NCBI RefSeq assembly: GCF_042180575.1
Contig: NZ_CP170094.1
Span: 1,848,604 to 1,912,603, forward strand
Origin: Bernardetia sp. OM2101
GTDB lineage: Bacteria; Bacteroidota; Bacteroidia; Cytophagales; Bernardetiaceae
Direction: 5' to 3'
DNA: 64,000 nt
The notes under the pieces were generated by a model. The model saw nothing but the letters and a program-made list of their open reading frames with translations. It was not told where the DNA came from and ran no database searches. The translations under genes were made by a program, and so were the position numbers. Position 1 is the first letter of the stretch, and the number at the start of each line of letters is the position of its first letter. Shown one piece after another: positions 1,662-49,240 of the stretch.

Positions 1662-3890
1662 ATGGAAATCACGACAACCGAAACAGCACAAAAACTTGGA
1701 CTTACAGCAGAAGAATTTACCAAAATTGAAGAAATACTCGGCAGAACTCCCAATTTTACTGAATTAAGTATTTTTTCTGTTATGTGGTCAGAACATTGTT
1801 CTTACAAAAACTCTATTGTTTGGCTCAAAACACTTCCCAAAAAATCAGATAGAATGCTCGTAGAAGCAGGAGAAGAAAATGCAGGTTTAGTAGATATTGG
1901 AGATGGTTTGGCATGTAGTTTTAAAATAGAATCGCATAATCATCCGTCTGCCTTAGAGCCGTATCAAGGAGCTGCAACAGGTGTAGGAGGAATAAATAGA
2001 GATATTTTTACGATGGGTGCAAGACCTATTGCTCAACTCAATTCACTTCGTTTTGGCAAAATTAGCTCTCCAAAAACACAATGGCTAGTTCGTGGTGTAG
2101 TCAAAGGAATTGGAGATTATGGAAATGCCTTTGGAATCCCAACAGTAGGAGGAGAGGTTTATTTTGATGAATGTTATAATGTAAATCCATTAGTAAATGC
2201 TTTTTCAGCAGGAATTGTAGAAACTGATAAAATTGCTTCTGCTATTTCGTTTGGCGTAGGAAATCCTGTTTATATTGTAGGTTCTGCAACAGGAAAAGAC
2301 GGAATTCATGGAGCTTCATTTGCCTCAAAAGACATTTCAGATGATTCGATAAAAGACCTTCCAGCCGTACAAGTAGGCGACCCTTTCCAAGAAAAATTGC
2401 TTTTAGAGGCAACTTTAGAAGCCATTGCAACAGGACATTTGATAGGAATTCAAGACATGGGAGCAGCAGGAATTACTTGCTCAACTTCCGAAATGAGTGC
2501 AAAAGGAGAACACGGAATGAAAATCTATTTGGATAAAGTTCCGACAAGACAAAAAAATATGCAGCCTTTTGAGATTCTTTTATCAGAATCACAAGAACGT
2601 ATGCTTATTGTTATTAAGAAAGGAAAAGAAGCCGAGTTACAAGCTATTTTTGATAAATGGGATTTGAATTGCGCTCAAATTGGAGTAGTTACAGACACCA
2701 AAAGACTAGAGTTTTATGTAAATGATGAATTAGTGGCTGATGTTCCTGCCGATGATTTGGTTTTGGGAGGTGGCGCACCAGTTTATAATAGAGAATATAC
2801 AGAACCTGCTTATTTTAGTGAATTCCAACAGTTTCAGATTGATGAAATAGAAGAACCAGAAGATGAAAAACTCCCTGAAATTGCTAAATTTTTAATTGGA
2901 CATCCAAATATTGCTTCTCGTCGTTGGATTTCAGAACAGTACGATTCGATGGTCGGAACGGCAAATACTTCTACAAACCAACCTTCTGATGCAGCGATTG
3001 TAAATGTAAAAGGAACAAATAAAAATATTGTTATTTCGGTAGATTGTAATTCTCGTTATGTCAATGCAGACCCAGAAAAAGGAACTATGATTGCCGTTTC
3101 AGAAGCTGCCAGAAATATTGTTTGTAGTGGTGGAGAGCCTGTTGCGATTACAAACTGCTTGAACTTTGGAAATCCATATATTCCAGAAGTATATTGGCAT
3201 TTTGTAGGAGCAATAAAAGGAATGAAAGCAGCTTGTGAAGTTTTCAAAACGCCTGTAACAGGTGGAAATGTGAGTTTTTATAATCAATCTTCGGATGAAG
3301 GTCCTGTTTTTCCTACTCCGACAATCGGAATGTTAGGTCTTTTGGAAGATATTAAGCTCAAAATGACGTTAGATTTTAAAAATGAAGGCGATATTATTTA
3401 TCAAGTTGGTAAATCAAGAAATGATATTTCTTCGTCGGAATATTTGTATTCGTATCATAAGTACAAAGCCTCTCCTGCTCCTTTTATTGACTTAGAAGAA
3501 GAATCAAAACTTCAAAAAACGATTTTAGAACTTATCAAAAACAAACTTATTGTTTCTGCTCATGACGTTTCAGATGGTGGACTTTTCGTAACACTTACAG
3601 AATCAGCAATGGCAGCCAGTAAAGATTTAGGTTTTTCTGTCAAGACGACTTCTCACAAAGTGCGTAAAGATGCTTTTTGGTTTGGAGAAAGTCAGAGTAG
3701 AGTTGTTGTTTCTGTTTCTAAAGATAAGAAAGAAGAATTTGAAGCATTACTCAAAATTCAAAATGTAGATTTTTCAGAGCTTGGAAGCGTGGTTTCTGAA
3801 AAAGTTTGTCAAGTAGATGGAACTATTTGGCTTTCAGTTGATGATGCAAAAGAAGAGTTTGAAGCTACTTTGCCGAAGTATTTGAACTAA
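1662..3890 (+). CDS. purL: Phosphoribosylformylglycinamidine synthase subunit PurL
   Basis: 742 aa. The N-terminus [19 protein letters not shown]...[13 protein letters not shown] and the AIR-synthase-like repeats are typical of small-form PurL. Confidence 0.93.
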
Positions 3891-3970
3891 ATATTTGAAC
3901 TTATTGGTTAATGATCTTTATGATGAATATAAATGAAAATTACCTTTTTTGATAAAATAATTTTGAAGTA

Positions 3971-39737: not shown

Positions 39738-40288
39738 ACTGTTTTTGCTCCATTTTCTTTTGCAAACTCTAAAAAACGTTTGAAATTTCTTAAATCTTGT
39801 CCAAAATTATTTCCTATATATCCATCTCCTTTATCAGTATTAAAGTCAGAAAAATAATATTCTGCATCCAGCATATCATATGCTGTTGGCAGTAAAAGTT
39901 TATTTAAGTTCTCAAGTTTTGAGAGTTTTTCTATTAGTGAAGTTACAATTTGCAAAACTTTATCTAAATTGTTCTTTAGTTTAGCCCTTGCTTCTTCAGC
40001 ATTACTTAAAATCTTTTGTTTTTCTTCTTCTGTTTTTGCTAAACCTAGTTCGAATTCTAGAGATTCTTCATCTGGGTAACCCATAATTTGATAAATTATT
40101 GAGATATCAACATTTGTAATTTTACCAATTTGGTCTAACTCTGCTTCATGTCCTACTGAAGCTTCTCTAAACATGAGGTTGCAAAACTGCCTACTTAGGC
40201 TATGTTTGTGAAAAAAATCTCCACTATAAATTTCTTCTATTTCTTGATAATTATCTGTAACAATGTCTATATCAAGTCCCATATTCAA
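39719..40288 (-). CDS. Hypothetical protein; its last 5 codons are now supplied by the IS1 right IR and target-site duplication
   Basis: The present C-terminus is ...ENGAKTVVVFFL*. The reconstructed pre-insertion sequence would read ...ENGAKTVWFMFG*. Confidence 0.5.
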   Translation of the reverse strand: MNMGLDIDIVTDNYQEIEEIYSGDFFHKHSLSRQFCNLMFREASVGHEAELDQIGKITNVDISIIYQIMGYPDEESLEFELGLAKTEEEKQKILSNAEEARAKLKNNLDKVLQIVTSLIEKLSKLENLNKLLLPTAYDMLDAEYYFSDFNTDKGDGYIGNNFGQDLRNFKRFLEFAKENGAKTVVVFFL

Positions 40289-46450: not shown

Positions 46451-46882
46451 TTATTTCGCAAAAAGTTGGTCTATATTTCTGAAGGCTTTAAACTCTAAGG
46501 CATTATTTTCTGGGTCTAGGAAAAACATAGTTGCTTGTTCTCCTACTTTTCCTTCAAAACGCAAATAAGGCTCAATGACAAATTTTATATTTTTAGTTTT
46601 CAACTTTTGAGCTAATTCCTCCCATTTTTGCCATTCCAAAACAACTCCAAAATGAGGAACTGGAACATCATGTCCATCCACCAAATTAGTAGGATTTGAA
46701 GCAAGTTTTTCTTTTGAGAATTTACTTTCAGGTTTTTGATGAATTACAAGTTGATGTCCAAAGAAATCAAAATCAACCCAGTGAGAATCACTTCGTCCTT
46801 CTGAACATTCCAAAACATCTCTATAAAATTGACGACATTTTTCTAAATCAATGACAGGGATAGCTAAATGAAAAGGCTGCAT
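46451..46882 (-). CDS. VOC (glyoxalase/bleomycin-resistance/dioxygenase) family protein
   Basis: 143 aa beginning [20 protein letters not shown], a typical glyoxalase-fold beta-alpha-beta-beta-beta module. Confidence 0.75.
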
Positions 46883-47060
46883 AGAAATGGTGAATTATTA
46901 ATTGTAAATGGTAAATGGTAAATGAATATAAACAACTAATTAAACTTTTAATTAAAAAGTCGTGTAGTTTATTTATTTCTCATTCCATAGGAGTAATTAT
47001 GAATTACGAATATAAACTACTGAATATCAGCTTATTTAATTCCTACTTCATAGTGTGAAT

Positions 47061-47207
47061 CATACTACTAGACTAGACATTTTCAAATAAATAGGTCAGT
47101 CCCAGAGGGCAGACCGTCTATAAACTAAAAACAAGTAAAATTGACTATAAACGGTCTGCTCTACGAGGCTGACCTATACAGTAATTAGTAAAATGTCTAG
47201 TAGTATG
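47061..47207. mobile_element. MITE-like element (147 bp) with 13-bp perfect terminal inverted repeats (CATACTACTAGAC) and longer imperfect inverted repeats. It is flanked by a 9-bp direct repeat, AGTGTGAAT.
   Basis: The direct repeat lies at 47052-47060 and 47208-47216. The arms 47061-47117 and 47150-47207 are inverted copies around a 7-bp inner stem (CAGACCG/CGGTCTG). Confidence 0.65.
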
Positions 47208-47230
47208 AGTGTGAATTAAAGTATTAGAAA

Positions 47231-49240
47231 TTATTTTTTAACAAATTTCTCTGTCAAAACTTGTCCTGTTTTTAGATTAGATATTCTAAGAATATACAAT
47301 CCTTTAGAGAACGAAGATAAATTTTGATTAAAATTCTGAATTCCTTTTTCATAGTTCTCAGTATTCTTAGCAACTGATTTTCCATTACTATCAAAAATTT
47401 CTAGTTGAATATCTGAATTAGAAGAAGGAATTGCAAAGACAAAATTAACAGTGTTTTGAGCAGGGTTTGGATATATTTTTTGAATCTCAAACTTTGTAAT
47501 TACACCTTGATTATCAATAGCTATTGTTTTGGTATAAGTAAATGTTCCATCCAAATCTACTTGCTTCAATCTATAATAATTGATTCCATTTTGTGGCTCA
47601 TCATCCCAATATTGATAAATTTGATTTTCCATCTTTTTATTTCCACACTTCAAATCTCCTATTTTGACAAAATCCATTGCATCATTACTTCTCTCTATTT
47701 CAAAATGAGAAGTATTAAACTCTCTAGCTGTTGCCCAATGCAATAAATTTTGGTCTTTGACTTTTTCTCCATCAAATTCGGTTAGTTCCAAAGGTAAAAC
47801 CACACAGTCTAATCCTGCTGTTCCAGAGAAAGCAATGTCAAAACCAATACCTGTGGCACTAAAATTATTAATTACAATATAGTATCTTTCTCCAGCTACC
47901 ACATTCAAATCATCATTGAATGGATTACCACCACCTGGATTTTCAGAGTTAGGGTCAGGGTCATTATCACCAAATCCACCTGCTAAACCTGTATCTAATC
48001 CTGTCGTTCCTCCTGCACCTGTACTAGAACTTGCATTACAAGATACACTATTTCCTCCTACTATACCTGCACAAGTATTTGCACGAAAAAGATTAAAATC
48101 ATAATCATCTCCTCCTGGATTTTGAGAATCTATTACAAAGCCTAGAGTTCCAGAAGTTTGAATTTCAAAATTAAGCCAAATAGATTGTAATTCCGTTTCA
48201 TCAAATCCTCCTGTAAAACAATTTCCAATATTACTATCTACTGCTCCAGGACCAAAACTATTCGTATTAAAAGAAGAACTACTACACAAAGGAAAACTAA
48301 CATCACAATCTGAATATTGGTTTTGGATGCAAATATCCATAGTCCCTGTTCCACCATTATTCTCCCATACACGCAAATAATAGGTATTTCCCCCTATAAG
48401 ATTGTACTCTAATATTCTTGACATATTACCAGTTCCTCCATTGTTATCACAATCGATTGATACAAGTGAGCCACATGTACCATCAGGTGCATGATAAAGC
48501 TCCATTCCACTATTTGTAATCGAACCTGCTTCTGTATCAATAACTGCTTGTCCACCTGCTGGAGCTACAAATCTATACCATACATCCTCTGCACCAGTAC
48601 CATTAGCACAAGAAGGGTCTCCGCCGAAAGTATTACTATAAGTAGCTCCTACATTTGTGATTTCTCCAAAAACACACTCAAACTGCCCTACATCTAAATC
48701 AAATGCTCCTGTGCATTCATCGTTAGCTGGGGGTAAAACAGAATGTACACATATACCAAAATCACCTGTTCCTCCATTAAACCCCCACATTCTTATGTAA
48801 TAAATTTGACCATTAACTAAATCAGTTCTTGTAATAAGTGATAAAGTTCCAGCACCTCCATCATCATCACATTCTACAGATGTAAGTGTATTACATGTTC
48901 CATCTGTAGAAGTATATAATTCAATACCTGTATCTCCAAGAGAACCTATTTGTGTTTCAATAGTAATATTACTAGCTACTGCTTCAAAACGATACCATAC
49001 ATCTTCTAAAGTTGTTGGGTCAAAGCCACCACCGAATGCACAACTAGGGTTTCCTCCTGATGCAGCGTTTCCAGATGTAGACCCTACATTTGTACTTGGG
49101 ACAGAAACACAACCTGTTGTGCTAACAATAATGGTAGGAGCAGATGAACAATCGTCAGACTGCCCATATAAATCAATATTAATAAAGCAACACAAAAAAA
49201 CAGTTGCTAAAAAATGAAGTAAGTAATTTTTGTTTTCCAT
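47231..49240 (-). CDS. T9SS-secreted protein with three PPC-like (pre-peptidase C-terminal-like) repeats and a C-terminal Por sorting domain
   Basis: There is a signal peptide. The repeats have the form DVWYRF...YYIRMWGFNGGTGDFGICV. The C-terminal region KIYPNPAQNTVNFVF...LEIFDSNGKSV...GLYILRISNLKTGQVLTEKFVKK matches a T9SS type A sorting domain. Confidence 0.8.
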   Translation of the reverse strand: MENKNYLLHFLATVFLCCFINIDLYGQSDDCSSAPTIIVSTTGCVSVPSTNVGSTSGNAASGGNPSCAFGGGFDPTTLEDVWYRFEAVASNITIETQIGSLGDTGIELYTSTDGTCNTLTSVECDDDGGAGTLSLITRTDLVNGQIYYIRMWGFNGGTGDFGICVHSVLPPANDECTGAFDLDVGQFECVFGEITNVGATYSNTFGGDPSCANGTGAEDVWYRFVAPAGGQAVIDTEAGSITNSGMELYHAPDGTCGSLVSIDCDNNGGTGNMSRILEYNLIGGNTYYLRVWENNGGTGTMDICIQNQYSDCDVSFPLCSSSSFNTNSFGPGAVDSNIGNCFTGGFDETELQSIWLNFEIQTSGTLGFVIDSQNPGGDDYDFNLFRANTCAGIVGGNSVSCNASSSTGAGGTTGLDTGLAGGFGDNDPDPNSENPGGGNPFNDDLNVVAGERYYIVINNFSATGIGFDIAFSGTAGLDCVVLPLELTEFDGEKVKDQNLLHWATAREFNTSHFEIERSNDAMDFVKIGDLKCGNKKMENQIYQYWDDEPQNGINYYRLKQVDLDGTFTYTKTIAIDNQGVITKFEIQKIYPNPAQNTVNFVFAIPSSNSDIQLEIFDSNGKSVAKNTENYEKGIQNFNQNLSSFSKGLYILRISNLKTGQVLTEKFVKK

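Follow-up and report, generated by a model that had tools for sequence, protein, structure and literature searches.

The 147-bp element at 47061-47207 of the window (the whole stretch of 64,000 nucleotides analysed here, with a G+C content of 31.7%) is, with high confidence, a MITE that carries the terminal repeats and about 12 subterminal bases of a clade of ~1.2-kb IS4-family insertion sequences (IS) from Cytophagales and Saprospirales. The preliminary description of this DNA had read the element as a MITE, and this reading holds: the element is one of many family members that lie at unrelated sites with 9-bp duplications of their own, autonomous IS elements share its ends, and the orthologous spacer in related Bernardetia strains lacks it.

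Direct reading of the sequence and a repeat finder delimit the body of the element at 47061-47207, with no strand assigned. With less than 400 bp and no transposase coding capacity (no ORF and no tblastn match), it is non-autonomous and of the size and content expected of a MITE. The sequence CATACTACTAGAC occupies 47061-47073 and recurs as its exact reverse complement at 47195-47207. Both copies of the 9-bp target-site duplication AGTGTGAAT, the left one at 47052-47060 and the right one at 47208-47216 (neither assigned to a strand), directly adjoin these termini, so that the perfect 13-bp termini of a 147-bp element and the exact flanking direct repeat reported previously were both reproduced in all their coordinates. 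Counting T47060 and A47208 would extend the terminal complementarity to 14 nt, but both bases are part of the duplication; boundaries drawn around this 14-nt repeat left mismatched flanks and were rejected, and the 9-bp duplication was kept. A search for perfect 13-nt inverted repeats that span no more than 400 bp and are adjoined by an exact 9-bp direct repeat recovers one instance in the window; 200 first-order Markov simulations of the window produced no instance. The MITE itself is present in one copy in the 64-kb window.

The right terminal repeat (47190-47207, - strand) is the intact 18-nt family consensus CATACTACTAGACATTTT. On the left, the terminal repeat (47061-47083, + strand) is composed of CATACTACTAGAC at 47061-47073, TAGAC at 47074-47078 and ATTTT at 47079-47083; here, a 5-bp tandem duplication, TAGAC, splits the 18-nt repeat and puts its inner third out of register. 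All other copies in the subfamily alignment described below have CATACTACTAGACATTTT uninterrupted, and the TAGAC insert is confined to the window copy, where it is likely to postdate the insertion and may have disabled any further movement. The transposition had previously been called recent, and a recent event is plausible: termini and duplication are perfect, but an insert breaks the left repeat, and the nearest match outside the window, L030 from the Flexibacter sp. CG_4_10 MAG, shares only 88% identity with the window MITE.

Between its ends, the element contains an imperfect hairpin (47091-47177, no strand assigned), the arms of which, 47091-47122 and 47146-47177, are 81% complementary. 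The inner 7-bp stem noted earlier, CAGACCG (47110-47116) with CGGTCTG (47152-47158) around a 35-nt loop, is correct and sits within a longer, perfect 9-bp stem, GCAGACCGT/ACGGTCTGC (47109-47117/47151-47159). The arms of the whole element had been put at roughly 55 bp; they are indeed inverted copies of each other, but imperfect ones, made up of the 32-nt internal repeat (81% complementarity), the termini and indels. A strand of the MITE is calculated to fold with about -60 kcal/mol (z = -8.7), which holds for either strand.

When one genome per species was scanned, the 18-mer end CATACTACTAGACATTTT was found at 114 loci or more. The loci listed carry Cytophagales, Saprospirales or generic Bacteroidota labels, except for L043 from a MAG labelled Roseobacteraceae, and their groups comprise Microscillaceae, Cytophagaceae, Bernardetiaceae, Saprospiraceae, Lewinellaceae and related groups. 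At least about 36 loci come from the Microscillaceae UBA11690 MAG, at least 16 each from a Cytophagaceae MAG and a Phaeodactylibacter MAG, at least six from Cytophagales MFD03250.bin.2.91 and at least four from a Bernardetia MAG; Neolewinella, Microscilla and Flexibacter are also represented among the matches listed. Short elements were defined by pairing 18-mer ends in opposite orientation among the listed loci, which yielded 73 elements with modal sizes of 102, 122 and 145 bp that have common ends and unrelated interiors. The 9-bp flanks of these paired elements are identical in 31 of 72 cases, differ by one mismatch in 18 of 72 and by two mismatches in 8 of 72; a duplication with at most one mismatch is thus present in 49 of 72 family copies, whereas a control in which the right flank was displaced by 15 bases gave no pair with fewer than three mismatches. 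The duplicated sites vary between copies and show a weak palindromic preference, R-T-N5-A-Y, which AGTGTGAAT fits at positions 1, 8 and 9. Conservation of the ends is near-complete over 18 positions and falls abruptly thereafter, a profile that is partly a matter of ascertainment, as the search selected one end per locus.

The commonest form within the family measures 102 bp and contains two GC-rich hairpins, GGCCGTGAGGACACGGCC and TTCGTTTGTGTCTCCACAAACGAA (for example, L008, L010, L019 and L036). It occurs in either orientation in the Microscillaceae UBA11690 MAG, the Cytophagaceae MAG and a Microscilla assembly (L038). The 122-bp and 145-bp forms are found in other genomes and have interiors quite different from that of the 102-bp form. 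At one Saprospiraceae locus (L052, 1592-6448), a chromosome segment of 4857 bp lies between family terminal repeats, with 9-bp flanks that match at 8 of 9 positions; the segment encodes no transposase and has a 419-aa ORF and several small ORFs. It may be a non-autonomous transposon with cargo, or its two ends may be independent of each other. The literature searched yielded nothing specific on the terminal sequence or on insertion sequences of Bernardetia, and the MITE family with CATACTACTAGACATTTT ends appears to be undescribed so far.

The window element belongs to a subfamily in which BLASTN and alignment show, between the common ends, an AT-rich subterminal spacer and the hairpin ATAGGTCAGTCCCARAGGGCAGACCGT ... 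ACGGTCTGCTCTACGAGRCTGACCTAT. Besides L030, its copies include L049 in Cytophagales MFD03250.bin.2.91, with the duplication GTTATTTTT, and L015, L046 and L079 in a Bernardetia MAG, with the duplications AGTAAACTT, AAAAAATAT and GGCAAGAAC; the same MAG also holds the cut-off copy L059 and so carries at least four subfamily copies. Units of 139-147 bp with the same internal hairpin are thus found at unrelated sites, with their own 9-bp duplications, in at least four genomes. That the subfamily occupies different sites with duplications of its own implies that the short unit itself has moved repeatedly; multiple copies at unrelated sites are seen for the family and, in genomes other than that of the window, for the subfamily. 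Across five copies of the subfamily, drawn from three genomes, the arms of the hairpin hardly vary, and they are better conserved than the subterminal spacers. Folding of the subfamily consensus reveals a single compensatory change, confined to a trivial helix of 2 bp. One half-copy relic (L133, 1496-1550), CATACTACTAGGTATTTTTGATAAATAGGTCAGTCCCAAAGGGCAGACCGTTTAA, is carried on a plasmid of Bernardetia sp. Wsw4-3y2 and has no recognisable second arm. A metagenome scan with the subfamily core AAACGGTCTGCTCTACGAG returned three contigs of the known L030 locus and three chance matches to GC-rich coding sequence.

The preliminary description had proposed a search for an autonomous element with CATACTACTAGAC termini, and two such elements were found. 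One is a 1215-bp IS (L006, 2131-3345) with a 378-aa ORF and an exact duplication, CTTCGCTGC, in the same MAG as L049; the other forms a 1190-bp contig of Neolewinella antarctica (L099) with a 371-aa ORF. In both, the ends are identical to CATACTACTAGAC(ATTTT). Further full-length IS elements are present at L123 (1429-2641; ends CACACTACTAGACATTTT, duplication ATGCTCAAC) and, with the variant ends CATACAGCTAGACATTT and the 9-bp duplication CTTCATTTT, at L122 in Persicobacter. The elements with MITE-type ends measure 1.19-1.23 kb and contain a single ORF for a DDE transposase of 371-378 aa. A related IS on a plasmid of Bernardetia sp. ABR2-2B (L121) has diverged ends, TACAGTACTGGACATG, at 1410-1425 and 2606-2621, a 9-bp duplication, GGAAATAGT, and a 363-aa transposase that is 36% identical to that of L006; because its ends differ from those of the MITE, it is not an obvious partner. 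Duplication of 9 bp is thus a property not only of the short elements, as it is also seen at the full-length IS copies L006, L123, L121 and L122.

The L006 protein matches the Pfam model DDE_Tnp_1 (PF01609) with E = 3.9e-21 and the NCBIfam model NF033591, 'IS4 family transposase', with 157.8 bits against a cutoff of 152. For L099 (127 bits) and the other homologues, L121 (112 bits) among them, the scores are under this cutoff, yet NF033591 is the best match for each. The Y-(2)-R-(3)-E-(6)-K signature is complete in all three proteins, as YRIRWKIEYCFKHLK in L006, YIKRWRIECLFRHLK in L099 and YYLRWKIECLFRHLK in L121. At E <=1e-10, the L006 protein has 777 relatives, mostly of 377-378 aa. The partner transposase genes mostly reside on ~1.2-kb contigs, the usual fate of repeated IS elements in assemblies. 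At one locus (L124, 1415-3937), two IS copies (1415-2641 and 2711-3937) are arranged head to tail, 69 bp apart, each with a 377-aa transposase gene. No homologue of the partner transposase was detected within the 64-kb window by tblastn. Two protein searches, with the L006 protein and the ABR2-2B plasmid protein as queries, listed no OM2101 transposase of this clade, a negative of no weight given that the ABR2-2B protein was itself missing from the matches. The mobilising transposase had previously been called unknown; its family can now be identified as IS4-family DDE, from the ~1.2-kb IS elements with common termini and 9-bp duplications.

The resemblance between MITE and IS extends past the 18-nt repeat. 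In both the window copy and L049, some 30 nt of the right arm resemble the right end of the L006 IS, with 28 of 31 positions matching in L049; in the window, it is 47178-47189, the ~12 nt inward of the right repeat, that still resemble the L006 right end. Moreover, both arms of the window copy are closer to the right end of this IS than to its left end. Judged by these matches, the MITE arms are derived from IS ends. In L006 (at 3320-3345) and L099, the transposase ORF ends in ...KNV followed by TAG, a stop codon that falls inside the terminal repeat on the right (AAAAATGTCTAGTAGTATG). That the repeat also has to supply the stop codon could be part of the reason for its identity between transposases that are only 38% identical.

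In the Bernardetia sp. OM2101 sequence, the MITE occupies a 348-bp spacer between two co-directional genes on the - strand. Upstream lies a gene for a secreted protein of 669 aa with a T9SS C-terminal sorting domain (47231-49240, - strand; TIGR04183, 46 bits), the stop codon of which is 14 bp from the right duplication; downstream lies a gene for a VOC/glyoxalase-family protein of 143 aa (46451-46882, - strand), which has 100% identity with a protein of Bernardetia sp. OM2101. This gene order is kept in Bernardetia sp. ABR2-2B (L115) and in Wsw4-3y2 and relatives (L118-L120). The spacer of the latter measures 122-129 bp, is near-identical on both sides (TAATTTCTAATACTTTAATTCA/AATTACTCCTATGGAATGAG) and lacks the MITE, as does the spacer of ABR2-2B, which is only 8 bp long. 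A check for an empty site in related strains had been suggested; the element is indeed absent from L115 and L118-L120, but a clean empty site (CCTACTTCATAGTGTGAATTAAAGTATT, with a single AGTGTGAAT) was not recovered there, as an adjacent 56 bp are missing too. A metagenome scan with the conserved flank TAATTTCTAATACTTTAATTCA, for filled or empty sites in close relatives, produced no matches.

Several smaller features of the spacer may be recorded. The 56 bp beside the MITE (~47000-47055) that are missing from L118-L120 include part of the target, are flanked by direct repeats of 7 bp, TGAATTA, and have imperfect inverted ends (46998-47011/47039-47052); this stretch could be a second tiny insertion, or it could have been lost from the relatives by repeat-mediated deletion. 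A degenerate direct repeat, 46924-46955/47008-47039, with copies 84 bp apart, 72% identity over 32 nt and an exact core, GAATATAAAC, suggests an old local duplication of intergenic DNA. In a metagenome relative with a 92% identical VOC protein (L116, 20-70), the spacer contains a GC-rich palindrome, GTTGTTGGTGTTTTAGCGAAGCGACACCAACAAC, at which the contig ends. Small structured insertions seem to accumulate preferentially in the spacer upstream of the VOC gene. A scan for sigma-70 promoters and terminators, which does not model Bacteroidota promoters, marked a promoter-like site at 47086-47059 (- strand) and, within the MITE, a weak terminator-like site; neither was given weight.

The 9-bp duplication had earlier been considered to fit IS1-family chemistry. 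A genuine and complete IS1-family element is indeed present 8 kb away at 38904-39737 (38896-39745 with its duplications). It has a 260-aa transposase (150 bits against NF033558), terminal repeats that are imperfect, GGTAGTGTTCT.../...AGAACACCACC, and the exact 8-bp duplication ACTGTTTT that the preliminary description had reported; it directly follows an AraC-like regulator gene. IS1 elements can make 8-9-bp duplications, and mobilisation of the MITE by an IS1-family transposase, for example, that of this neighbour, might be considered on these grounds. We give it virtually no credence: the neighbour has unrelated ends and an 8-bp duplication, CATACTACTAGAC has nothing in common with GGTAGTGTTCT, as already remarked in the earlier account, and does not resemble the IS1-type inverted repeat (GGTAGTG...) either, and the MITE ends match those of IS4-family elements exactly over 18 nt and, with one of them, over ~30 nt. 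A different origin, from a full-length IS that inserted here, lost its interior in place and never moved as a short unit, would account for the resemblance of the arms to IS ends and for the single copy in the window. It is nevertheless very unlikely, as the 139-147-bp unit resides at unrelated sites in at least four genomes, with several copies in one MAG, and as both arms are like the same (right) IS end, which a simple internal deletion would not yield.

The very stable fold on either strand, the conservation of the hairpin arms over that of the subterminal spacers among subfamily copies and the position of the element 14 bp after a stop codon, between co-directional genes, could also be taken to indicate a structured intergenic element that is selected because it serves the host, for instance as a small RNA or as a hairpin for transcript stabilisation or attenuation, in which case the flanking repeat would be incidental. 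This alternative is highly improbable, given that the family-wide statistics of the 9-bp duplication demonstrate transposition and that the element is absent from the orthologous spacer of the relatives. Nor does a T run follow the hairpin on the transcribed strand, and Rfam at a permissive threshold returned only hairpin-type miRNA models far under their gathering scores. The hairpin has no informative compensatory change, and selection on its structure is neither supported nor excluded. A related idea concedes transposition and regards the hairpin modules as selected cargo, for example, RNA terminators, stabilisers or protein-binding sites, that is spread by the IS machinery, with the window copy, from its place shortly behind a stop codon, modulating expression of the downstream VOC gene. 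It draws on the near-invariant 18-nt end across transposases of 38% identity, on the unrelated hairpin modules and on the conserved arms; we consider it unlikely. If it were true, IS machinery would have spread selected cargo through Cytophagales and Saprospirales genomes.

For the preferred reading, a MITE mobilised by an IS4-family transposase, a route of insertion can be proposed by analogy with IS10 and IS50. The 371-378-aa DDE transposase, supplied in trans from an autonomous copy, would bind the ~18-bp ends CATACTACTAGACATTTT and, as with IS10/IS50-type transposases, would excise the MITE by cut-and-paste, presumably of the hairpin type. The excised element would then be joined to a target cut with a 9-bp stagger, repair of which would generate the 9-bp duplication. 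For the window copy, the insertion point would have been the spacer between the genes for the T9SS-sorted and VOC-family proteins, and the event presumably took place in the OM2101 lineage after its split from ABR2-2B and Wsw4-3y2.

The main value of these results is for annotation, as they provide an end sequence, a 9-bp duplication rule and an IS4-family partner for the MITE family. The CATACTACTAGACATTTT elements are abundant in several Cytophagales and Saprospirales genomes, break metagenome assemblies and could be mistaken for structured RNAs. As regards the window, the insertion in the spacer is explained and the attribution to IS1 corrected; no new biological question is opened.

The IS4 family is defined by a DDE transposase with a Y-(2)-R-(3)-E-(6)-K signature (De Palmenaer et al. 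2008, PMC2266710), and its target duplications are ~8-13 bp, as against 4-6 bp in IS701, ISH3 and IS1634 (PMC2266710). Within the family, the IS4Sa subgroup comprises elements of 1150-1750 bp with ends CA------T and duplications of 8-10 bp, whereas IS10 has CT ends, and IS231 and ISH8 are longer, with 10-12-bp duplications (PMC2266710, Table 1). The partner IS elements share with IS4Sa a single, unframeshifted DDE transposase with a complete YREK motif, a length of 1.19-1.23 kb, ends that start with CA and have T at position 9, and a 9-bp duplication; the window element itself differs in having no transposase. By the tabulated features alone, the partners provisionally fit an IS4Sa-like subgroup best. 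They also resemble IS10 and IS50 (of Tn10 and Tn5), which likewise duplicate 9 bp of target, have terminal repeats of ~18-23 bp that are bound by the transposase, and show a weakly palindromic target preference, here R-T-N5-A-Y. The hotspot consensus of IS10 is symmetric. In contrast to IS10 and IS50, the ends of the CATACTACTAGACATTTT elements begin with CA, not CT, and the transposases are distant, with less than 30% identity to the Acinetobacter plasmid proteins among the matches listed.

The window element is of a textbook kind, a MITE derived from an IS4-family IS. With other bacterial IS-derived MITEs, such as that of Porphyromonas gingivalis (PMC4596501) and the IS231-derived mobile cassettes, it shares a short, AT-rich and non-coding sequence, terminal repeats of IS type, a target duplication as long as that of the parent, an intergenic site and strong fold-back potential. 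What sets the family apart from IS-derived MITEs generally is an 18-nt end that is near-invariant across transposases only 38% identical, combined with many unrelated internal modules.
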